This document shows positions 4,674 through 35,570 of a DNA stretch of 64,000 nucleotides, one piece after another. The notes below the pieces were generated by a model. The model had not been told where the DNA came from. It did no database searches and saw only the letters and a list, made by a program, of their open reading frames with translations. Both the position numbers and the translations under genes were made by a program. The stretch comes from an uncultured Gammaproteobacteria bacterium (GTDB taxonomy: Bacteria > Patescibacteriota > Microgenomatia > PFEM01 > JAHIFH01), in NCBI GenBank assembly GCA_964653685.1, contig CAZZHA010000001.1, forward strand, positions 5,794 through 69,793, written 5' to 3'. Position 1 is the stretch's first letter; each line of letters begins with the position of its first letter.

Positions 4674-5953
4674 ATCTTTTTTAATCTCTTAAACGTCTTT
4701 TCTCTTCCTAAAACCTCTATCGTTTCAAAGAGAGGCGGAGTAGCGGTTTTACCAGTAAGGGCAATTCTGGTTGCCATAAAATATTTGCCAGTATGCCAAT
4801 TATTCTTCTCTGCCAAATCTCTGAATAATTTTTCTAATCTCTTTGCCTCCCAAACCCTATTTTTTTCTAACTCCATGATTGATTTTTCGAACTGTTCTTT
4901 GAGTAATTTTTCTCCCTGACTTTTTTTAATGAGTAATTTTTTATCAACCTTTGGTTCTCTAATAAAAAAGTCAACTAAATCAGGATAATCAGAAAGTTTA
5001 ATCAATCTGTCTTTAATTAAAGGAATGGTTTGTTTAATTAAACTATCTGCCATTCCTTTAGGTATGTATGGTTTAATTAATTGAAGTAGTTCTTTATCTG
5101 TCTTTTCCCTAAGATAAACACCATTTAACCAATCTAATTTTCTTAAATCAAAAACAGGAGCCGAAGTTGAAATCCTTTTAAAAGAAAAATATTTAATAAA
5201 TTCATCTAAACTAAAAACCGTTTTGTCTTGGGGGTGTGACCAACCCATTAAACCAAAAAAGTTAACCATCGCTTCGGGTAAATAACCTTGTTCCTGATAC
5301 CAAGAAAGAGCGACCAGGTTTTTTCTTTTTGAAATTTTTGATTGGTCAGGATTTCTTAAAAGAGGCAAATGAGCAAATTCTGGTACCTTAGCCCCTAAGG
5401 CTTGATAAAGCATTATTTGCCGGGGAGTGTTAGAAATGTGGTCTTCACCTCGAATCACCTGGGAAATTTTCATTAACCAGTCATCGATGACCACAGCAAA
5501 ATTATAAACAGGATAGCCATTTGACCTTAAGATAACAAAATCTTCAATCTGTTGATTATCAAACTCTATTCTTCCACGAATAAGATCTTGCCAAGAAGTT
5601 TTTCCTTTTAAAACCTTAAATCGAATTGCCCCTTCATCTTGGTAAGCAAGTTTTTTTTCTAGCAATTCTTGAGCATATTTCTGATAAAGACTTATTCTTT
5701 CTGATTGACGATAAGGCCCAAACTTGCCCCTAACGTCCGGACCCTCATCGTAATTTAAACCTAGCCAGTGCAAGCCATCAAAAATTGCTTTTTCCGCTTT
5801 AGGTACATGGCGTTTTATGTCTGTATCTTCGATTCGAAGAATGAATTTGCCTTTGTTTTTTTTGGCAAAAGCATAATTAAAAAGAGAAATGTAGGCGGTA
5901 CCAACATGGGCAAAGCCGGTTGGCGAAGGCGAAATTCTGACTCGGATGCTCAT
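4670..5953 (-). CDS. gltX: Glutamyl-tRNA synthetase (short form)
   Basis: HIGH region PSPTGFAHVGTA and KMSKS-like KISKRK. The ORF track starts at 5971, but the ATG at 5953 (MSIRVRISPSPTG) matches GluRS N-termini and lies 8 nt downstream of TGcTAAAAT. Confidence 0.9.
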   Translation of the reverse strand: MSIRVRISPSPTGFAHVGTAYISLFNYAFAKKNKGKFILRIEDTDIKRHVPKAEKAIFDGLHWLGLNYDEGPDVRGKFGPYRQSERISLYQKYAQELLEKKLAYQDEGAIRFKVLKGKTSWQDLIRGRIEFDNQQIEDFVILRSNGYPVYNFAVVIDDWLMKISQVIRGEDHISNTPRQIMLYQALGAKVPEFAHLPLLRNPDQSKISKRKNLVALSWYQEQGYLPEAMVNFFGLMGWSHPQDKTVFSLDEFIKYFSFKRISTSAPVFDLRKLDWLNGVYLREKTDKELLQLIKPYIPKGMADSLIKQTIPLIKDRLIKLSDYPDLVDFFIREPKVDKKLLIKKSQGEKLLKEQFEKSIMELEKNRVWEAKRLEKLFRDLAEKNNWHTGKYFMATRIALTGKTATPPLFETIEVLGREKTFKRLKKI

Positions 5954-8024: not shown

Positions 8025-9385
8025 TTTTTCATTACTTTGATTTTGAGTTCTTTTAATTGAACTTCATCAACTTCACTGGGAGCCTCCATTACTGATGTCT
8101 GACCACCAGCCGTCATCGGAAAAGCAATTAGTTCTCGGACTGAACGTTCTCCCAAAGCGGCCTGTAAAAATCTATCAATTCCTGGGGCAATACCACCATG
8201 GGGCGGAACTCCATATTCAAATGCCCTTAAGAGATGACCGAATTTTTTCTCTATCTCTTTTTCCGAAAGGCCTAGAATTTTAAAAATTTTTCGCTGGATT
8301 TTGGGGTCAGTAATCCTAAGACTCCCTCCACCCACTTCCAAGCCGTTACAAACTAAGTCATGCTGCCAAGAGCGTGCTTTCATTGGGTCTTTATCTAACA
8401 AAGGCAGATCTTCATCCTTAGGAGCAGTAAAAGGATGGTGAGAAGGACTTAATTCTCTTTCTTTTGTCTTTTCAAACAAAGGAAAATCAATTACCCAAGC
8501 AAAAGCAACTACCTTAGGATCTTTTTTCTTACGCAGATCAAATTTATCACTGCCAAATTTTTTCATTGCTTCGGCATGACTAAAACGAGGAAAAGGCTTT
8601 TTAAAAACTCTCTTTTTTAAAACCTTCTCCGTTATCTCGGTAAAAAGAGTTTCAGTAAGATTAAGAATCTCTTCCTGGGTTGTAAAAGACATCTCCAAAT
8701 CAAGCTGAGTAAACTCTCCATAAGCCCGATCAATCCGAGGATCTTCATCACGAAAACAGCGGGCAATTTGGTAATACTTTTCAAATCCAGCTACCATTAA
8801 TAATTGTTTGTATTGCTGAGGAGCCTGGGGTAAGGCGTAAAACTTACCCGGCTGAAGTCGCGAGGGAACAATAAAATCACGAGCGCCTTCTGGTGTCGCC
8901 TTGGAAAGAATTGGTGTTTCGATTTCAATAAAACCTTTTTCATCAAGCCAATTACGAATGAATCTGATTACCTGATGTCGAATTTCAAGATTTCTGACTA
9001 ATCGGGGTCGGCGTAGATCAAGATAGCGATACTTTAACCGAGTCTCTTCACCAATTTGATAACCATCACCTCGAATATCAAAAGGTAAATCTTCTGATTG
9101 GGCTAAAATCTTGACCTTTTCTACCTCGACTTCAACTTCACCACTGGGAATCTTGGGGTTAATTAAATCTTTAGGTCTTTTTTTAACTTTACCTTCTACT
9201 TCAACAACGTCCGAAATCCTTAATTTCCCTAGTTTTTCTTTACCAACAATCTGAACCAAACCAGTTCTATCTTTCAAGTCAATAAAAACCAATTTACCAT
9301 GGTCGCGCCGCCGATCAATCCAACCATTAAGTCTAACTTTTTTACCTATCTTTTTAAGTATCTCTTTAATGAGAGTTCTTTCCAT
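8021..9385 (-). CDS. aspS: Aspartyl-tRNA synthetase, bacterial-type core without the GAD insertion domain
   Basis: 454 aa. Motifs QAPQQYKQLLM, FRDED, GGGSLR and PPHGGIAPGIDR. FGSDKFDLRKKKDPKVVAFAWVIDFPLFE joins directly where the GAD domain normally sits. Confidence 0.9.
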   Translation of the reverse strand: MERTLIKEILKKIGKKVRLNGWIDRRRDHGKLVFIDLKDRTGLVQIVGKEKLGKLRISDVVEVEGKVKKRPKDLINPKIPSGEVEVEVEKVKILAQSEDLPFDIRGDGYQIGEETRLKYRYLDLRRPRLVRNLEIRHQVIRFIRNWLDEKGFIEIETPILSKATPEGARDFIVPSRLQPGKFYALPQAPQQYKQLLMVAGFEKYYQIARCFRDEDPRIDRAYGEFTQLDLEMSFTTQEEILNLTETLFTEITEKVLKKRVFKKPFPRFSHAEAMKKFGSDKFDLRKKKDPKVVAFAWVIDFPLFEKTKERELSPSHHPFTAPKDEDLPLLDKDPMKARSWQHDLVCNGLEVGGGSLRITDPKIQRKIFKILGLSEKEIEKKFGHLLRAFEYGVPPHGGIAPGIDRFLQAALGERSVRELIAFPMTAGGQTSVMEAPSEVDEVQLKELKIKVMKK

Positions 9386-9423
9386 ATTTTAGATTCTATC
9401 CTCTAAAAGGATTTTTTGCAATT

Positions 9424-11067
9424 TTATTCTGGAATTTTAATGTCTTTGATTTTTAATTCCAACCGCTGAAGGCCATTCCATTGATTGAGAAAAAGATTAT
9501 AGGCAAGGTCAACTGGTTGTTTGGTTGAAAGCTGAGGTAATAATTCTCCTTGACCAAAAGCAATTACCTCAAAACCATTAACTCTAAATTTAAGATGTTG
9601 ATTATCAGCCCCAACTTTTTTAAGGTTAGCAATTCTTACTTGCCGACTGGAAAAGACCGGTTGAGGATTATTCATCCCAAAAGGGGCAAATTTATTAACT
9701 TCTTGATAAAGAGCTAAGTTTAAATCAATTAACTCAACCTCTATCTCAATTTCTATTCTCGGTCCTAATTTTTTCTTGCCTAAATCTTTTTCCGCCTTTT
9801 TTATTAATCTCTGTTTAGCTTCTTCTAATTTCTCCTGACTGACATCAAAACCAGCCGCCAAACGATGACCGCCATGATCACCAATAATATCTTTCAATTC
9901 CCGAATGGCTTCAATAATATTAAACTCTTCAATTGACCGGCCCGAACCTACCCACCGATCTTTTCTAGGCGCTAAAATAATGGCTGGTCGATAAAATTCG
10001 TCTTTTAATTTACTTGCCACCAAACCAACAACACCATGCTCATAAGACTGATGATAAATAAAAATTAAAGAACTCTCACCATCTTCTTTTAACCAAAGTT
10101 CTCGAGCGTGAAGAGTAGTTTGTTTCATTAATTCCTGACGCTCACGGTTTTTCTGATCAATTTTCTGGGCTAAACTGATAGCTCGATTTTCATCATTAGT
10201 ACAAATTAAGCGAAGAGCTTCCATCGGATCATCCATCCTGCCGCTGGCATTGATTCTTGGACCAATAATAAAACCGACTTCATAGGTATCAATCTTTTTT
10301 TTATCAAGACCAGCGAATTGATAAAGAGCTAACAAACCAGCTCGCTTAGTTTTGTTAACCTGACTCAATCCGAATTTAACAATCGAGCGGTTAGGACCAA
10401 TCAAGGGGACCATATCGGTTATTGTTCCAATGGTAACTAAATCTAAACCAAGGGGTTTGGCTTTAGATTTAATTTTTTCAACCAGCCACTTAGCCAAAAA
10501 CCAGGCTACACCACAACCAGCTAATTGGGTGGTGTGGATAATGGCTTTTGCCTTAGGTTTCTTTTTTCCAGGCTGATGGTGATCAGTAATAATCACATCA
10601 ATCCCTGTTTTTTTTGCCCGAGTTACTTGACGATAAGCAACGATCCCTTGGTCAACCGTAATAATCAATTTCACTCCCTCTTTAGCCATTTGATTAATGA
10701 TACTAGCTTTCAGACCATAGCCTTCTTCTCTGCGGGGGATAAAGGGCAGGACATCTAAACCTAATTTATTGAGGGTTTCCCACATGATGGCGGTCGCGCA
10801 AACACCATCGGTATCATAATCACCGTAAACAATCACTTTCTCTTTTTTCTTAATTGCCTGCCTAATTCTCTTAAGCGCTTTATTTAATTGAACCAAGGAA
10901 ATACCAACATCTTGAGGTGTCAATTGGTAGGGATCTTTGGGATTAAGAAATTCTTTTTGTTGTTTTTTTGTTTTCAAATTACGGTTCTTAAAAAGAGCTT
11001 TAACTATTTCTTCTCTTCTTTCTTGGAGTTTGGTAGATTTGATTCTTGCTAAAACTTTCCACCTCAT
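9424..11067 (-). CDS. recJ: Single-stranded-DNA-specific exonuclease RecJ
   Basis: 547 aa. DHH-family motifs DYDTDGV and ITDHHQP, plus a DHHA1-like GGHRLAAG. Confidence 0.9.
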   Translation of the reverse strand: MRWKVLARIKSTKLQERREEIVKALFKNRNLKTKKQQKEFLNPKDPYQLTPQDVGISLVQLNKALKRIRQAIKKKEKVIVYGDYDTDGVCATAIMWETLNKLGLDVLPFIPRREEGYGLKASIINQMAKEGVKLIITVDQGIVAYRQVTRAKKTGIDVIITDHHQPGKKKPKAKAIIHTTQLAGCGVAWFLAKWLVEKIKSKAKPLGLDLVTIGTITDMVPLIGPNRSIVKFGLSQVNKTKRAGLLALYQFAGLDKKKIDTYEVGFIIGPRINASGRMDDPMEALRLICTNDENRAISLAQKIDQKNRERQELMKQTTLHARELWLKEDGESSLIFIYHQSYEHGVVGLVASKLKDEFYRPAIILAPRKDRWVGSGRSIEEFNIIEAIRELKDIIGDHGGHRLAAGFDVSQEKLEEAKQRLIKKAEKDLGKKKLGPRIEIEIEVELIDLNLALYQEVNKFAPFGMNNPQPVFSSRQVRIANLKKVGADNQHLKFRVNGFEVIAFGQGELLPQLSTKQPVDLAYNLFLNQWNGLQRLELKIKDIKIPE

Positions 11068-31699: not shown

Positions 31700-31773
31700 C
31701 GGGGTGTGGCGCAGTTGGCTAGCGCGCACGCATGGGGTGCGTGAGGTCGCCGGTTCGAGCCCGGCCACCCCGA
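31700..31773 (+). tRNA. tRNA-Pro (anticodon GGG), CCA not encoded
   Basis: Hand-folded cloverleaf. Acceptor CGGGGTG/CACCCCG; D arm GCGC-AGTTGGCTA-GCGC; anticodon arm CACGC-ATGGGGT-GCGTG; T arm GCCGG-TTCGAGC-CCGGC; discriminator A, followed by CAA. Confidence 0.9.
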
Positions 31774-31778
31774 CAAAA

Positions 31779-32129
31779 ATGAAAATTTTTCTTCGTAAAG
31801 ATAAAAAACTTCGTGACCCAGGTAATTTTTATTTTGGCGATTACGGTGAAATTCCTATTGGTATTTCTTTAACAACAATCAATGAAGACAATCTTGACGA
31901 AAGCAAAGACACGAAACATTATCATCAAAAAGGCTATGAATTTTATTTTACTATTAAAGGTAAAGCTATTATTGAAATTAAAGATAAAGAAGTCGTTTTA
32001 GATAAAAATCATCTGATTATGGTCGAACCAGGTGAAAAACATTACGTTAAAAAAATTCTTAAAACTCCTTTTTCTGTGTTATCAATTTCCACTTTAAAAG
32101 ATAAAACTGATAAAGTTGTTGCGAAATAA
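31779..32129 (+). CDS. Cupin-like small protein
   Basis: The ORF track begins at 31704 inside the tRNA. The real ATG at 31779 (MKIFLRKDKK) lies 5 nt after the tRNA. Cupin motifs HYHQKGYEFYFTIKG and IMVEPGEKHYV. Confidence 0.7.
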   Translation: MKIFLRKDKKLRDPGNFYFGDYGEIPIGISLTTINEDNLDESKDTKHYHQKGYEFYFTIKGKAIIEIKDKEVVLDKNHLIMVEPGEKHYVKKILKTPFSVLSISTLKDKTDKVVAK

Positions 32130-32143
32130 TTAGTAGAAATTTT

Positions 32144-33265
32144 CTATTTCTTGAAAAGAATCCTACTGGCTAAAATCGTGGTAATTGGAACAGCCAGAAT
32201 AAGGCCAATACTCCCGACTAAAGTCCTGACAATTTCTTCAGCGATCATTTGGTAATTAATAATCTCTGAAAACGGTCGGGGATTATCAATAAAAAGAAGC
32301 ATCAAAGGTAAAGCGGCCCCAGTATAAACCAAAACTAAAGTGTTAATCATTGAAGCAATATGGTCTTGACCAACATTCATGGCTCTTTTAAACAATTCTT
32401 TGGTTTTCATCTTTGGATTAGCCTCTTTTAATTGCTGGACAATCGCCGCCTGGGAAACAGTGATGTCATCCAAGACACCTAAAGTACCAATAATAATCCC
32501 TGCTAATAAAATTCCTCTCATGTTAATTTGGCCTTGTTTAGCCAAATGAAGAAAAGCGGCTTCTTCTGAAGCATAACCAGTTAATTTGGTTAGCTCAATA
32601 AAAAATCTTGATAAAAGACCAACAATTAACAAAGCAATTAAGGTTCCGGCCATGGCTATCAAGGTCTTTCGATTCAAACCATGAGAAAGAAAAAAAGTGG
32701 CCGGAATAATAATCAATGAACCAATAATGGCAATGACAATCGGATCTTCGCCTTGATAAATCCGAGGTAGAATGAACAAGAAAATAACGGCCAAAGAGAT
32801 AATCAGGCCTAATAAAGACATCCCACCTCGCCATTGACCGACTATCAAAGCCAAAACAGCAAAGACCAAAAAAAGCCAAACTAATGGCTTTCGCCGAACA
32901 AAATCAGTGATAATAAAAATGTTCTTGCCTTCAAAATCCTGAGAATAACTAATCACTACTTCATCACCTACTTGATATTTAGGCTGGCCAACAACGGAAA
33001 TATCGCCTACTTCAACTCTGATTTCTTCACTGGCTAGAGAACCCTTGGAGACTCTAACCTGTAATTCTTGGTAAAGAAGTTTTTCACCATCTCTAATCAT
33101 AGATTTTTCGTCAAGAATCCCAATGACTTTGCCTTCAAGGAGTTCCTCTTGGAGGAGGCTTGTTTCCGTCTCTTCGGTTTCCTGCGACCAAACATAATTA
33201 ATCGGCAAATAAGAGAAGATTAAAATAAAAAAAAGAAAACAAACTAATAGTTTCTTCATAACCAT
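32144..33265 (-). CDS. YibE/F family membrane protein
   Basis: 373 aa. Signal peptide, extracytoplasmic domain and a polytopic C-terminus with GTLGVLDDITVSQAAIV, typical of YibE/F. Confidence 0.8.
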   Translation of the reverse strand: MVMKKLLVCFLFFILIFSYLPINYVWSQETEETETSLLQEELLEGKVIGILDEKSMIRDGEKLLYQELQVRVSKGSLASEEIRVEVGDISVVGQPKYQVGDEVVISYSQDFEGKNIFIITDFVRRKPLVWLFLVFAVLALIVGQWRGGMSLLGLIISLAVIFLFILPRIYQGEDPIVIAIIGSLIIIPATFFLSHGLNRKTLIAMAGTLIALLIVGLLSRFFIELTKLTGYASEEAAFLHLAKQGQINMRGILLAGIIIGTLGVLDDITVSQAAIVQQLKEANPKMKTKELFKRAMNVGQDHIASMINTLVLVYTGAALPLMLLFIDNPRPFSEIINYQMIAEEIVRTLVGSIGLILAVPITTILASRILFKK

Positions 33266-34440
33266 CCTAAGACCATTGCCAAACCTAAGACTAGAATAAT
33301 GAGACCGGCAATTAAATGAAGATATTTAATATTTTTATCTTTCCAACCAGCCACATTCTCAACCGTGGTAAAGCCAATATAGCAAACGCCAGTAATCACC
33401 AACATCGGCAAAACAAAAATCAAATTATAAAGTAACAACCAGGGAATTACTTGAACTAAATCAAAGGTACATAAAATACCACCGCAAATCACATAAGGAC
33501 CGATCGTACAAGGGAGAAGAAAAAGGGTAACTAAAGCCCCAACAATAAAAGCACCTCTAGGGCTAGTAACTTTAAACATTAGACCTTGGACTTTGGGACG
33601 CAGAAACATCGGCATTTCGGTTAAAAAGCCGCCCGGTTTATAACGAATAAAATCTCTAAGATTTAGAATTCCTAAAATGATCGCTGCTAATCCTAAAATT
33701 CTATAAAGCCATAATTTAAGGTTTGTTAAAGCCTGAATTAATTGGAAAAACCTAATAATCACCAAACCATAGAAGAAATACATTACAAAAACGGCTGTGG
33801 TGAAAGCTAAGCCAGCTAAGAGGATATTATAACGCTTTTTCGGAGCAAAGGCTAAAATAGCAAAAAGCATCATCACTAAGACTGCCAGAGCACAAGGATT
33901 GATGGCATCAACCGCGGCCAAAGAAATAATCTTCGGTAAGGTCAATTCTGTTTGAATTGTCTCGCCCGAAGACACAGAGATACTGCCAGCTGACGCTGAT
34001 AAAATTTCTGGCTTGCCTGGCAAAGTTGAAATATCCAAATCTCCAAAGCTGGTCGAACTACCATCAACCAAAGGGCAGGCATTACCTTCTAATTGCTTAA
34101 GCTTGGTTTCAATGTTCTCTAAAATTGGCCTATCACCAATAAGGAAATTATCCTTACCAAAAACAATTAAAGGAATACTTAAACCCGAACCATAAATTTC
34201 ATTATATTTAGTCAATAAGGGTGCATTATTTCTTTGTTGATAAATTTCATATTCAATGATAACTAAATTGGGATACTTTTTAGGTAATTCTTTAAGGAGA
34301 ACTGGATCAACTTGGGCGCAATGAGGACAACCAACGCCAGTAAAGTAAATCAGGCAAGTTTTCTCTTCGGCCTGGAGAGACGATGAAAACAAGACTGTCA
34401 GTAATAAAATGGAAACAAAAAAAATGGCTAATTTCTTCAT
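33256..34440 (-). CDS. Thioredoxin-like (CPHC) domain fused to a CcdA/DsbD-type transmembrane electron-transfer domain
   Basis: 394 aa. Signal peptide and FTGVGCPHCAQ thioredoxin motif. The TM domain carries the paired motifs INPCAL and LLPCTIGPY. Confidence 0.8.
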   Translation of the reverse strand: MKKLAIFFVSILLLTVLFSSSLQAEEKTCLIYFTGVGCPHCAQVDPVLLKELPKKYPNLVIIEYEIYQQRNNAPLLTKYNEIYGSGLSIPLIVFGKDNFLIGDRPILENIETKLKQLEGNACPLVDGSSTSFGDLDISTLPGKPEILSASAGSISVSSGETIQTELTLPKIISLAAVDAINPCALAVLVMMLFAILAFAPKKRYNILLAGLAFTTAVFVMYFFYGLVIIRFFQLIQALTNLKLWLYRILGLAAIILGILNLRDFIRYKPGGFLTEMPMFLRPKVQGLMFKVTSPRGAFIVGALVTLFLLPCTIGPYVICGGILCTFDLVQVIPWLLLYNLIFVLPMLVITGVCYIGFTTVENVAGWKDKNIKYLHLIAGLIILVLGLAMVLGWL

Positions 34441-34478
34441 TCAGCTATTCTTTAGGATAAGTAATTTTAGCTTTTTTT

Positions 34479-34778
34479 TCAACCACGAATCATTTTCACT
34501 CGACCTCCCTCAATCCTAATAGCTTTACCTTCAACTAAACCTTCGCTTACTTTTTTTCTAGCGGAAGTGAGGATTCGTTGAAAAGTGGATTGAGAAACTT
34601 TCATCTTTTTGGCCGCTTTAATTTGTTCAACACCTTGATAATCAGCTGAACGAATGGCTTCTAATTCATCGACACTTAATTTAACCTCCCTTAAATAGCG
34701 CAAAGGTATTCCCCGGGGCTTGTAGTAAGTCACTCCTGGTTGAAATGATATCCACCGCCATCTTTTTGGTCTAGGCAT
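34479..34778 (-). CDS. DUF134 (UPF0251) putative DNA-binding protein
   Basis: 99 aa. [23 protein letters not shown]-terminus and a sigma-70 region-4-like HTH ([27 protein letters not shown]). Confidence 0.82.
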
Positions 34779-34785
34779 GGTTAAA

Positions 34786-35034
34786 TTACTTGCCTTGAGT
34801 TTCTTTTTCCTCTTTGGTAACGTCTTCCAATTCTTCTTGAAGGGCTTTTTTATATTCTTTCAGCGCTTCAACTTCTTCTTCTTTAGATTGAGGCCATGGC
34901 CAACCGAAGTAACGTCCCATTCCCCGACCGGGAGAAAAACGACGACGCCAACCCAGACCTAGTCCACAAGGACCAAAGCCGCGACCAGTTAAAGATCCCT
35001 GACCACTCGGTCCTGTCTGATCAAATCTTGGCAT
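34786..35034 (-). CDS. DUF5320 family protein
   Basis: 82 aa. [24 protein letters not shown] Gly-rich N-terminus and a C-terminal coiled coil. SD GAGGAGGTGA. Confidence 0.8.
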
Positions 35035-35075
35035 AAATATTCACCTCCTCTCTTTTTTATTATGAATATATACCC

Positions 35076-35103
35076 ATTATAACACGGATAGGCGAGTTGT
35101 CAA
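35076..35103 (-). promoter_or_regulatory. Near-consensus promoter of the DUF5320 operon
   Basis: Minus strand reads TTGACA (35103-35098), a 16-nt spacer ending in TGt, and TATAAT (35081-35076). Confidence 0.7.
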
Positions 35104-35126
35104 GGGTTATCTTTTTTCTAAGAGAA

Positions 35127-35570
35127 TTATCTTTTCGGAGATTGTTTTTTAGCTCGGGCTGATTGGGCAAGGCCGGCTTTGCGGCGCTCTTTCATTCGCG
35201 GGTCACGAGTTAAAAGACCAGCTTTTTTTAAAGGCAGATGATACAGTTCAGAGTTTTCTTTAGCCAGAGCTCTGGCTAAGCCATGGACAACTGCTCCCAA
35301 TTGACCATTTTTACCTGATCCTCTAACCTTAACCGTCGCGTAATATTTCCCTTCAGTTTTGGTGACCTGAAACGGCTTCATGTAAACGAATTCATTAACC
35401 TCACCCGGAAACCATTCTTCAATTGGCCGATCATTAACCACCAAATCGCCTTTGCCTTTTAAGAGTCTTACCCGGGCCACAGCTTCTTTTCTTCGACCAA
35501 GAGCATAAGTATAGGCTTTTTTCCGACCCCGCTTGGTTTTTCTGACTTTAACTGTTTTTTTAGTCACCAT
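35127..35570 (-). CDS. rpsI: 30S ribosomal protein S9
   Basis: 147 aa. GRRKEAVARV.., GGGKNGQ-like GSGKNGQLGAV, C-terminal ...KKQSPKR. Confidence 0.95.
   Translation of the reverse strand: MVTKKTVKVRKTKRGRKKAYTYALGRRKEAVARVRLLKGKGDLVVNDRPIEEWFPGEVNEFVYMKPFQVTKTEGKYYATVKVRGSGKNGQLGAVVHGLARALAKENSELYHLPLKKAGLLTRDPRMKERRKAGLAQSARAKKQSPKR

Follow-up and report, generated by a model that had tools for sequence, protein, structure and literature searches.

What holds together four adjacent genes whose families are all poorly characterized, and is their assembly peculiar to the genome that carries it? The question is raised by a locus in a 64,000-nucleotide stretch of DNA (hereafter the window; positions 5,794 to 69,793 of contig CAZZHA010000001.1, assembly GCA_964653685.1), for which an earlier note, made from the letters alone, had described an operon of a DUF5320 gene, a DUF134 gene, a gene for an exported thioredoxin domain fused to a membrane domain, and a YibE/F gene. 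The window has a GC content of 38%, and its closest database proteins, at 97-100% identity, are labelled Patescibacteria, the Candidate Phyla Radiation (CPR), which makes its source an ultra-small bacterium of that group. The families are already catalogued, and DUF134 (UPF0251) is among the oldest 'domains of unknown function'. In the searchable literature we found no functional study of DUF134, DUF5320 or YibE/F, the single mention of UPF0251 being in a mutation table. On balance, the evidence leans towards a compact, self-repressed operon that is the minimal form of a gene neighbourhood of CPR bacteria and DPANN archaea and that has envelope redox and metal outputs. We hold the regulatory architecture and the gene association with considerable confidence; the redox and metal function is a tentative assignment that we doubt slightly more than we believe it.

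A four-gene operon behind a near-consensus promoter

An open reading frame (ORF) listing of the window places all four genes on the minus strand between 32144 and 35103, tightly packed as had been described, and Pfam matches confirm the family names of three of them. The first gene after the predicted operator is that for DUF5320 (34786..35034; 82 aa), whose product has a Gly/Arg-rich N-terminus, one conserved cysteine (GPCG) and a C-terminal coiled coil, in keeping with the Gly-rich coiled-coil protein first noticed there. It is followed by the DUF134 gene (34479..34778; 99 aa), a short form with a helix-turn-helix (HTH) domain only and the predicted autorepressor of the operon. Next comes the thioredoxin-membrane fusion gene (33256..34440; 394 aa), encoding a signal peptide (aa 1-24), a thioredoxin fold (aa 28-116), a linker and a six-helix membrane domain (aa 167-391), and last the YibE/F gene (32144..33265; 373 aa; alternative start 33259), whose product has a membrane anchor at its N-terminus, then a beta-rich domain outside the cytoplasm (aa 41-122) and, at aa 125-368, a helical membrane bundle. 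DUF5320 and DUF134 are 7 nt apart, DUF134 and the fusion gene 38 nt, and the YibE/F start overlaps the fusion gene by 10 nt, as previously read, or by 4 nt (ATGA) from the second ATG (33259), as in an identical 371-aa database protein (P0121).

Pfam membership is clear for DUF5320 (PF17253; 59.9 bits against a gathering cut-off of 27, E = 5.8e-16), DUF134/UPF0251 (PF02001; 89 bits against 27, E = 3.2e-25) and YibE/F (PF07907; 276 bits against 27.2, E = 3.6e-82, model positions 1-240 of 241). NCBIfam returned nothing for three of the four operon proteins, and the equivalog PRK04217 scored the window's DUF134 below cut-off (62.8 against 115).

The promoter reported for these genes also stands. 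Its -35 hexamer TTGACA (35098..35103), 16-nt spacer and extended -10 element TGtTATAAT (35076..35084), all on the minus strand, match the sigma-70 hexamers at 12 of 12 positions, and no other site in the region combines such a match with an extended -10; the remaining promoter-like and terminator-like matches there occur as often as in shuffled sequence. An equivalent -35/-10 arrangement is seen again in orthologous loci, where the Shine-Dalgarno sequence of the DUF5320 gene (GGAGGTGA; 35041..35048, minus strand) is conserved as well.

The operon is a trimmed version of a recurrent neighbourhood

We scanned the GTDB species, each represented by a single genome (about 185,000 in all), for relatives of the thioredoxin-membrane fusion and found them encoded in 472, mostly from CPR bacteria and DPANN archaea. 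The best 80 GTDB species loci and the window gave a set of 81, in which ORFs were called and searched with hidden Markov models (HMMs) that had been built up iteratively, starting from seeds. Within 6 kb of the fusion gene, DUF134 is encoded in 35 of the 81 loci (on the same strand in 34), a MinD-type ATPase with two ferredoxin motifs (MinD-Fer4) in 34, DUF5320 in 28, a NifX-like (Nitro_FeMo-Co) protein in 27, a ZIP transporter in 16, a cation diffusion facilitator (CDF), often fused to a NifX-like domain, in 15, and a split ArsP-like permease in 8-9. Among the 48 fusion loci with adequate flanks, at least one cluster family is present in 38, DUF134 in 28 and DUF5320 in 21, these two as a rule within a larger cluster of NifX-like, MinD-ferredoxin, CDF and ZIP genes. 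Pfam labels on the database contigs concur with the HMM family assignments. For 348-aa proteins in these loci a 'CDF/DUF134/NifX' label was discarded as wrong, Pfam showing them to be plain CDF transporters.

The reverse scan, anchored on YibE/F, covered 80 metagenome loci with YibE/F proteins at 55-82% identity, which brings the loci compared to about 160. DUF134 is encoded on the same strand no more than 700 bp upstream of YibE/F, or is fused to it, in 43 of the 64 loci with enough upstream sequence, and after dereplication at 90% identity it is directly upstream or fused in 31 of 47. Anywhere in these 47 loci, DUF134 is found in 40, DUF5320 in 32 and the fusion gene in 18. The YibE/F-anchored counts therefore identify DUF5320-DUF134-YibE/F as the core unit in CPR bacteria, with the thioredoxin-CcdA-like gene as a frequent accessory, and they bear out the suggestion that this operon offers a functional context for YibE/F.

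The window's exact four-gene order also occurs in two other pairs of loci (L008/L052 and L149/L150). The typical full CPR layout consists of DUF5320, two NifX-like genes, MinD-Fer4, CDF, DUF134 and YibE/F, with ZIP and the fusion gene as optional members; neighbours in other loci also include Dps and ArsR, and some DUF134 proteins have His/Cys-rich tails. Thus DUF134 and DUF5320 do accompany metal-cluster carrier genes in related loci, as the earlier note had stated, and the co-occurrence of the families is clearly recurrent. Its idea that they had been specially rewired here fails: the fusion and YibE/F recur in the larger DUF134 neighbourhood, of which the window is a trimmed, minimal version and not a novel rewiring. 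The four genes are in this way tied to clusters of anaerobes that resemble those of the orange protein (ORP) complex, with its NifX and MinD-ferredoxin components.

As a separate observation, a uracil-DNA glycosylase gene (PF03167) lies on the same strand inside or beside the fusion/DUF134 cluster in 14 of the 81 loci (for example L020:3006-3605, L026:6726-7298, L031:9488-10063 and L074:7340-7912). Family-4 uracil-DNA glycosylases carry a [4Fe-4S] cluster, and both relevance to the gene cluster and coincidence are possible.

A conserved palindrome at the promoter is the predicted DUF134 operator

Aligning the regions upstream of DUF5320 on the start codon brought out a 16-bp palindrome of 6-2-6 type, ATGAATAT-ATATTCAT, with the core TGAATA-N2-TATTCA. 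The exact core is present in 35 of 55 non-redundant upstream regions, and in 44 of the 55 when up to two mismatches are allowed; it is centred about 36 nt before the DUF5320 ATG (the modal distance over the 55 regions). Exact sites number only 56 in the 1.67 Mb of fetched loci, and at least 69 of the 78 sites with no more than one mismatch in this sequence are at DUF5320 or DUF134 promoters. The earlier note had advised a search for a palindromic operator near 35040-35110 of the window, and a candidate lies there at 35062..35077 on the minus strand (ATGGGTATATATTCAT), a two-mismatch variant of the palindrome (TGGGTA-TA-TATTCA). It is centred 35.5 nt before the DUF5320 ATG, at exactly the position conserved in other loci, and it overlaps the last two nucleotides of the -10 box and the probable transcription start. 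The window shares this GGG variant with at least nine loci (L014, L035, L075, L080, L083, L085, L101, L147 and L167).

Among the bacterial loci, 30 of 49 orthologous regions with an operator have a TTGAC -35 box 27-29 nt before it, and in bacteria the operator therefore overlaps the -10 box and transcription start. In seven archaeal loci it comes after a TATA-like box, with two copies in some regions. The location at the promoter favours repression.

Several observations make DUF134 the likely binder of the palindrome. The palindrome accompanies DUF134 even where DUF5320 is missing (L045, L099 and L156), and other DUF134 genes without DUF5320 also have 6-2-6 palindromes upstream, of the TTGGCA type in Klebsiella and E. 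coli plasmids, Salinivibrio and Acetoanaerobium, and TTGACATATGTCAA in Clostridium butyricum. Across phyla, the class of operator covaries with the recognition helix of DUF134, which is VSRQTLAN or VSRATFQA in the plasmid, Salinivibrio, Acetoanaerobium and C. butyricum lineages and VSQ(S/P)TF(Q/A)R in CPR bacteria and DPANN archaea. The GGG variant pairs with the SQSTFQ recognition helix in 8 of 8 cases, a pairing that is phylogenetically confounded and counts as a hint. Finally, a profile of DUF134 gives a match (1.3e-6) to the DNA-binding domain of DeoR, a repressor of B. subtilis, and the window's protein matches the extracytoplasmic function sigma-70 region 4 at 1.1e-4, below the cut-off; these matches fit the sigma-70 region-4-like HTH noticed from the sequence. 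DUF134 probably binds the operator as a dimer. The searchable literature holds no DNA-binding experiment for any DUF134 member.

A riboswitch or other leader RNA was considered as an explanation and rejected. An Rfam search for such elements gave no match besides tRNA, and the leader fold is weak and not unusual (z = -1.3), with no stable leader structure.

Some archaeal loci deserve separate mention. L014, L017, L018 and L020 encode fusion proteins 58-65% identical to that of the window and DUF134 proteins about 55% identical, with a very similar operator. This close likeness of fusion, DUF134 and operator suggests that the whole module has been transferred between CPR bacteria and DPANN archaea.

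DUF134 is covalently joined to YibE/F in some lineages

Four protein clusters of 441-444 aa are in-frame DUF134::YibE/F fusions, in which the HTH domain leads straight into the first YibE/F membrane helix. They come from several independent samples and two genomic contexts. A second fusion of this kind (L167) has another junction and another DUF134 subtype, so that two different junctions are represented in at least five samples in all. Between fused genes the DUF134 part has a dN/dS of 0.04-0.14 at a pS (synonymous divergence) of 0.41-0.64, which indicates purifying selection. DUF134 is therefore physically linked to YibE/F in these proteins. Fusions of DUF134 to a NifX-like domain occur in L051 and in C. 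butyricum and suggest that the NifX-like domain is a likely sensor module. In an alignment of DUF134 members, other proteins bear zinc-ribbon, NifX-like or His/Cys-rich extensions, whereas the window's DUF134 has neither a zinc ribbon nor a NifX-like sensor extension.

The C. butyricum case is on a megaplasmid (L185:4001-4765), where the DUF134::NifX-like protein ends in a His/Cys-rich tail, HHKHEGEHTCGSHGCGSHDSDHKCSHE, and a perfect TTGACATATGTCAA palindrome lies within a longer inverted repeat 116 nt upstream of the gene. On plasmids of E. coli, Salinivibrio and Klebsiella (L181, L183 and L186) a DUF134 gene is paired with a NifB/NifX-family gene; 197 plasmids carry this pair, most of them conjugative plasmids of Klebsiella, Citrobacter and E. 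coli. Near the pair are, among others, genes for a PaaI thioesterase, Dps and an ArsR/SmtB regulator, and these DUF134 genes have TTGGCA-type palindromes of their own upstream. In L091, a NifU_N gene split by a LAGLIDADG domain, probably an intein (8171-9643, minus strand), adjoins a cysteine desulfurase gene and an ArsR-type HTH gene, 1 kb from a DUF134::YibE/F fusion gene.

The thioredoxin-membrane fusion resembles a small DsbD

Three motifs had been singled out in the fusion protein, and all three are present: CPHC (C38 and C41; codons 34318..34329), INPCAL (C183 in DAINPCAL of the first membrane helix; codon 33892..33894) and LLPCTIGPY (C311 in FLLPCTIGPY of the fourth membrane helix; codon 33508..33510), all on the minus strand. 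The four cysteines are invariant in 55 homologues, as is P90, the candidate cis-proline. The C311 motif aligns with SPCTTAP, which contains the second catalytic cysteine of E. coli DsbD.

An AlphaFold model built on the 55 homologues (pLDDT, the predicted local distance difference test score, 79.8) has a signal peptide, a minimal thioredoxin fold at aa 28-116, a disordered linker and six long membrane helices. In the thioredoxin part the order of elements is beta-alpha-beta-alpha-beta-beta-alpha, with the CxxC placed where helix 1 begins and with a cis-Pro loop; it has no DsbA-type helical insertion, and the protein has no alpha-type domain. The Pfam Thioredoxin match falls below the cut-off (18.4 against 23.5 bits), and the nearest solved sequences are ScsC copper-resistance proteins (4xvw, 6nen, 6mhh and 4gxz; E = 1e-4 to 4e-4). 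The membrane helices of the model span 167-198, 203-236, 239-265, 294-323, 328-355 and 363-391, with one cysteine in helix 1 (C183, NPC) and one in helix 4 (C311, LPC), each in a Pro-Cys context. An N-out, C-out topology is predicted from the signal peptide and the positively charged loops.

Searches for relatives of the membrane domain gave a mixed picture. With Foldseek, no membrane protein matches better than CcdA (5vkv; 235 columns, 22% identity, probability 0.96, template-modelling score 0.48). The protein matches none of DsbD, DsbD_2 and CcdA (PF02683, PF13386) in Pfam at E<=10 or in NCBIfam, and an hhalign comparison with E. coli DsbD is weak (E = 1.5e-3, probability 17%) with the cysteines in correct register, placing SPRGAFIVGALVTLFLLPCTIGP of the fusion on a 23-residue DsbD stretch that holds the second catalytic cysteine motif. 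A weakly similar Roseburia protein, with two thioredoxin domains and a membrane domain, does match Pfam DsbD_2 (1.7e-4). Many homologues of the fusion carry precomputed matches to PF11139 (SfLAP/GAP), a family that we take to be in the same LysE/DsbD clan; the window's fusion has no PF11139 match at E<=10, and a split homologue reaches 32.5 bits against a cut-off of 35.

With family HMM support lacking or below threshold, the thioredoxin and CcdA/DsbD assignments rest on structure prediction and motifs. Of the CcdA/DsbD-type conduit claimed for this gene, then, what stands is a probable likeness of fold together with the motifs; the family HMMs do not support it. We infer from fold, motif and transitive evidence a protein that would work like a 'mini-DsbD', as distinct from a demonstrated member of the DsbD/CcdA family. 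Together with its relatives it defines a distinct family of thioredoxin-CcdA-like fusions. No paper linking CcdA with CPR bacteria or DPANN archaea was found in the searchable literature, and a tblastn search with the fusion against 72,556 plasmids gave one weak match.

Variants of the protein were also seen. In nine loci (L032, L051, L055, L065, L069, L081, L082, L088 and L090) the thioredoxin and membrane parts are two adjacent ORFs. Some of the contigs with split genes are labelled Alphaproteobacteria, Devosiaceae or Bdellovibrionales, and the split pair often adjoins DUF134::NifX-like and MinD-Fer4 genes. Longer variants of about 470-530 aa have an insert of 80-130 aa between the two domains.

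YibE/F has a predicted RND-like fold

The structure model of YibE/F (pLDDT 79.3) starts with a membrane anchor, after which come the beta-rich domain on the outside (aa 41-122) and the helical bundle. This order of first membrane helix (TM1), extracytoplasmic domain and helical bundle is that of the membrane module of resistance-nodulation-division (RND) proteins. Its structural matches include Patched (13.2), NPC1 (13.1), Dispatched (13.0), AcrB (12.0), MmpL3 (11.5), SecDF (11.1), CusA (11.0) and the sterol-sensing domain of SCAP (10.4), and the sterol-sensing domain of HMG-CoA reductase is also among them.

Conservation was followed in an alignment of CPR sequences with those of Clostridium, Lachnospira, Pseudarthrobacter and Priestia. 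Here G263, G299, D301, E344, G354 and P360 are invariant and D267, N308 and T309 nearly so, with the result that a G263-x3-D267 motif and the acidic residues D301 and E344 lie within membrane helices from CPR bacteria to Firmicutes and Actinobacteria. The proton relay of RND proteins such as AcrB, Patched and MmpL3 uses an acidic residue in a central membrane helix, in the GxxxD of TM4. The pattern in YibE/F is reminiscent of this relay, and D267 is a candidate equivalent. In Firmicutes, long and short YibE/F genes occur as adjacent pairs, as expected of a two-half transporter such as SecD/SecF, and the family is widespread in Firmicutes and Actinobacteria without DUF134.

On a plasmid of the actinobacterium Pseudarthrobacter (L177:3596-6645), the genes next to YibE/F encode a four-helix-bundle copper-binding protein, a TlpA-family disulfide reductase and proteins for the assembly of cytochrome oxidase. 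This single observation puts YibE/F in an independent setting with copper and thiol-disulfide chemistry.

Comparison with known systems

The fusion shares with CcdA and DsbD (T. thermophilus CcdA, 5VKV; E. coli DsbD) the six membrane helices, the Pro-preceded cysteines in helices 1 and 4, a thioredoxin-fold CxxC partner on the outer face and, by prediction, the N-out, C-out topology. It differs from them in the absence of a family HMM match, in its motifs NPCAL and LPCTIGPY, and in its place within a DUF134/ORP-like neighbourhood; unlike DsbD, it has its thioredoxin domain, with CPHC, fused at the N-terminus, in the order gamma-beta and without an alpha domain. The classical client of CcdA is cytochrome c maturation. 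This would not apply to the fusion, because the organisms that carry most of its relatives, CPR bacteria and DPANN archaea, are reportedly (title of PMC7507113) without electron transport chains, which raises the question of what job an envelope redox conduit has there.

ScsB and ScsC offer a second parallel: under metal stress, an exported CPxC protein of the thioredoxin type acts together with a membrane protein that is like DsbD. The fusion differs in its minimal thioredoxin fold, which lacks the DsbA-type helical insertion, and in being covalently joined to its membrane partner. The window encodes neither ScsA nor ScsD, and the Scs pair of a ScsC-type DsbA-like protein and a ScsB with an N-terminal periplasmic domain is absent.

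For the larger neighbourhood, the closest studied system is the ORP complex, whose gene cluster is known from Desulfovibrio vulgaris (PMC6345978, PMC8359166). Its composition has been described, and its Di-Nase (NifX-like) domain binds and transfers Fe-S clusters (PMC6345978). Like that cluster, the related loci encode MinD-type ATPases with two [4Fe-4S] motifs (compare Orp3/Orp4) and Di-Nase/NifX-like proteins (compare Orp8 and the C-terminal domain of MrpORP), are associated with anaerobes and have a dedicated regulator. Unlike it, the CPR/DPANN clusters have CDF, ZIP, an ArsP-like permease, YibE/F and the thioredoxin-CcdA-like fusion in addition. The window itself contains no ORP-type genes (Orp3/4 and Orp8/9 types) in its 64 kb and is not an ORP cluster, and its regulator is DUF134 with a sigma-70 promoter, in contrast to sigma-54 and OrpR.

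YibE/F is like the RND half-modules (SecD/SecF, MmpL3, AcrB, Patched/NPC1 and sterol-sensing domains) in its domain order and in its buried acidic residues, one of which belongs to a conserved G-x3-D within a membrane helix; it is unlike them in lacking similarity at the sequence level and in being a single half of about 370 aa. DUF134 shares with the DeoR/SorC and sigma-70 region-4 HTH repressors the HTH matches and a palindromic operator that overlaps the core promoter, and is set apart by its separate Pfam family, its N-terminal MPRPxxxR segment and, in the window's copy, the lack of a ligand-binding domain. The DUF134::YibE/F fusions are analogous to ToxR and CadC, which also combine an N-in DNA-binding domain with a membrane anchor.

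A working model and its alternatives

In the model that we favour, DUF134 would bind the 6-2-6 palindrome over the -10 box and transcription start and so repress its own operon. The signal would probably reach it through DUF5320, always the first gene, and/or YibE/F, since the short DUF134 of the window has no sensor extension; YibE/F is covalently fused to DUF134 in some lineages. One output would be the 'mini-DsbD', in which a membrane-tethered, exported CPHC thioredoxin domain and a six-helix CcdA/DsbD-like domain would carry reducing equivalents out of the cytoplasm to surface thiols or thiophilic metals. The other would be YibE/F, a putative half-size RND/SecDF-like module with buried acidic residues and, judging by its modelled fold, most likely an exporter driven by an ion gradient and working as a dimer. 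The likeliest role of the operon would be envelope metal (Fe/Zn/Cu) and thiol homeostasis tied to metal-cluster handling, proposed because its neighbours elsewhere include ZIP, CDF, NifX-like and MinD-ferredoxin proteins, Dps, ArsR and DUF134 proteins with His/Cys-rich tails. DUF134, DUF5320 and YibE/F would gain from this model a shared, concrete place in metal and iron-sulfur handling; the model offers an operator sequence for DUF134 that is kept in two domains of life, a physical link from DUF134 to YibE/F and a transporter fold for YibE/F. In the searchable literature we found no description of the operator, of DUF134-YibE/F coupling, of an RND-like fold in YibE/F or of the thioredoxin-CcdA-like fusion family as a CPR/DPANN feature.

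A number of observations weigh against this model. The self-regulation suggested by the earlier note is supported by the conserved palindromic operator at the promoter, but the window's own copy departs from consensus at 2 of 16 positions, for which 0.71 chance matches are expected in the window, and is not significant alone. Co-transcription of the four genes is suggested by their spacing and by the lack of internal terminators or promoters beyond chance, that is, by sequence. YibE/F lies within 6 kb of the fusion gene in 5 of the 81 fusion-anchored loci, and a relative with a 76%-identical fusion in the same rpsI-recA slot has neither DUF134, DUF5320 nor YibE/F there. The whole 64-kb window contains no NifX, MinD, ZIP or CDF gene and no other metal-cluster or metal-transporter gene, which means that it is other genomes that supply the link to metals. 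The oxidase DsbA has CPHC at its active site, which makes the direction of electron flow uncertain and the thiol-reductant direction of the earlier note not established, and the operon holds no obvious cysteine-bearing client. YibE/F has no conserved cysteine in its alignment, and its resemblance to RND proteins is at the level of fold only: Pfam gave no match to ACR_tran, MMPL, SecD_SecF or Patched at E<=10, a PDB profile search found no sequence match, and hhalign against E. coli SecF returned a probability of 0.6%.

Some of the same facts would suit a different role for the fusion protein. It might be a cysteine-relay importer of a thiophilic metal, in the style of MerP-to-MerT transfer, and not an electron conduit: the exported CPHC would capture Fe2+, Zn2+, Cu+ or a similar metal in a sulfidic habitat and pass it on to a transporter domain of the LysE superfamily, at the two cysteines within the membrane. 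That the precomputed matches of the homologues are to PF11139, of the LysE clan, which includes metal transporters, and not to DsbD speaks for an importer, as do the ScsC proteins nearest to the thioredoxin part, the missing client and the fusion genes that directly adjoin ZIP metal importers in DPANN loci (L017, L018, L020, L034 and L078). We nevertheless consider it unlikely, given that cysteines in helices 1 and 4 with a CxxC thioredoxin partner are the exact DsbD/CcdA design, that CcdA is the best membrane-structure match and DsbD provides the aligned PC motif, and that the invariant P90 and the complete thioredoxin fold favour thiol-disulfide chemistry. A still more doubtful proposal would have YibE/F serve chiefly as a sensor in the membrane (a 'trigger transporter' or transceptor) by which DUF134 is controlled, with the thioredoxin-CcdA-like protein as the sole true effector. 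The two independent DUF134::YibE/F fusions under purifying selection, the short DUF134 forms that stand beside YibE/F without any sensor domain, unlike other DUF134 proteins, and the sterol-sensing domains among the structural matches are all compatible with sensing, but YibE/F is widespread without DUF134, its buried acidic residues are family-wide, as expected of an ion-coupled transporter, and the two roles are in any case compatible.

The operator could in principle be bound by another factor, or act in an RNA leader, with DUF134 and DUF5320 having no regulatory part. Binding by DUF134 is a prediction, the nearest gene to the palindrome is that of DUF5320, and the motif is AT-rich. This explanation is nonetheless improbable: the palindrome tracks DUF134 where DUF5320 is missing, on plasmids and in Firmicutes as well as in the three loci named above, its class covaries with the DUF134 recognition helix, it sits at the -10 box and transcription start in bacteria and after the TATA box in archaea, and, besides the weak leader fold and the lack of an Rfam match, a hairpin formed from it would have a loop of 2 nt. 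As for adjacency by chance or through genome compaction with no functional link, CPR genomes are gene-dense and the rpsI-recA slot is variable in relatives, but same-strand co-occurrence in dozens of species-level loci from two domains of life, with outright fusion in some lineages, makes it scarcely credible; the neighbourhood counts effectively refute it, and we reject it. Turning back to the favoured model, a bolder extension of it, which we regard as possible but on the doubtful side, would join its parts into a new membrane-coupled regulatory unit of DUF134, DUF5320 and YibE/F. In it YibE/F, as a minimal RND-type protein, would report its transport state to the HTH repressor, and the regulon, including the operator and a 'mini-DsbD' that exports reducing power, would have been exchanged between CPR bacteria and DPANN archaea as a shared means of surface metal acquisition or detoxification in ultra-small, respiration-less symbionts.

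Genomic setting

The operon is flanked on one side by a ribosomal-protein/rpoA block (rpsI ends at 35127) and on the other by a convergent cupin gene, tRNA-Pro and recA-recX-rny. What lies between rpsI and recA varies: in the L001/L011 relative, whose fusion is 76% identical, the interval holds a CBM96-domain protein and the fusion. Gene content and synteny like those of CPR bacteria were also seen in metagenome-assembled genome records titled 'uncultured Gammaproteobacteria' or 'Saccharibacteria' (L011, L013, L015, L016, L052 and others). Such titles are a poor guide to taxonomy here. Finally, the listed cupin ORF of the window (31704-32129, plus strand, GTG start) overlaps tRNA-Pro(GGG) at 31700-31774, and its true start is probably an ATG near 31779 (MKIFLRK...).

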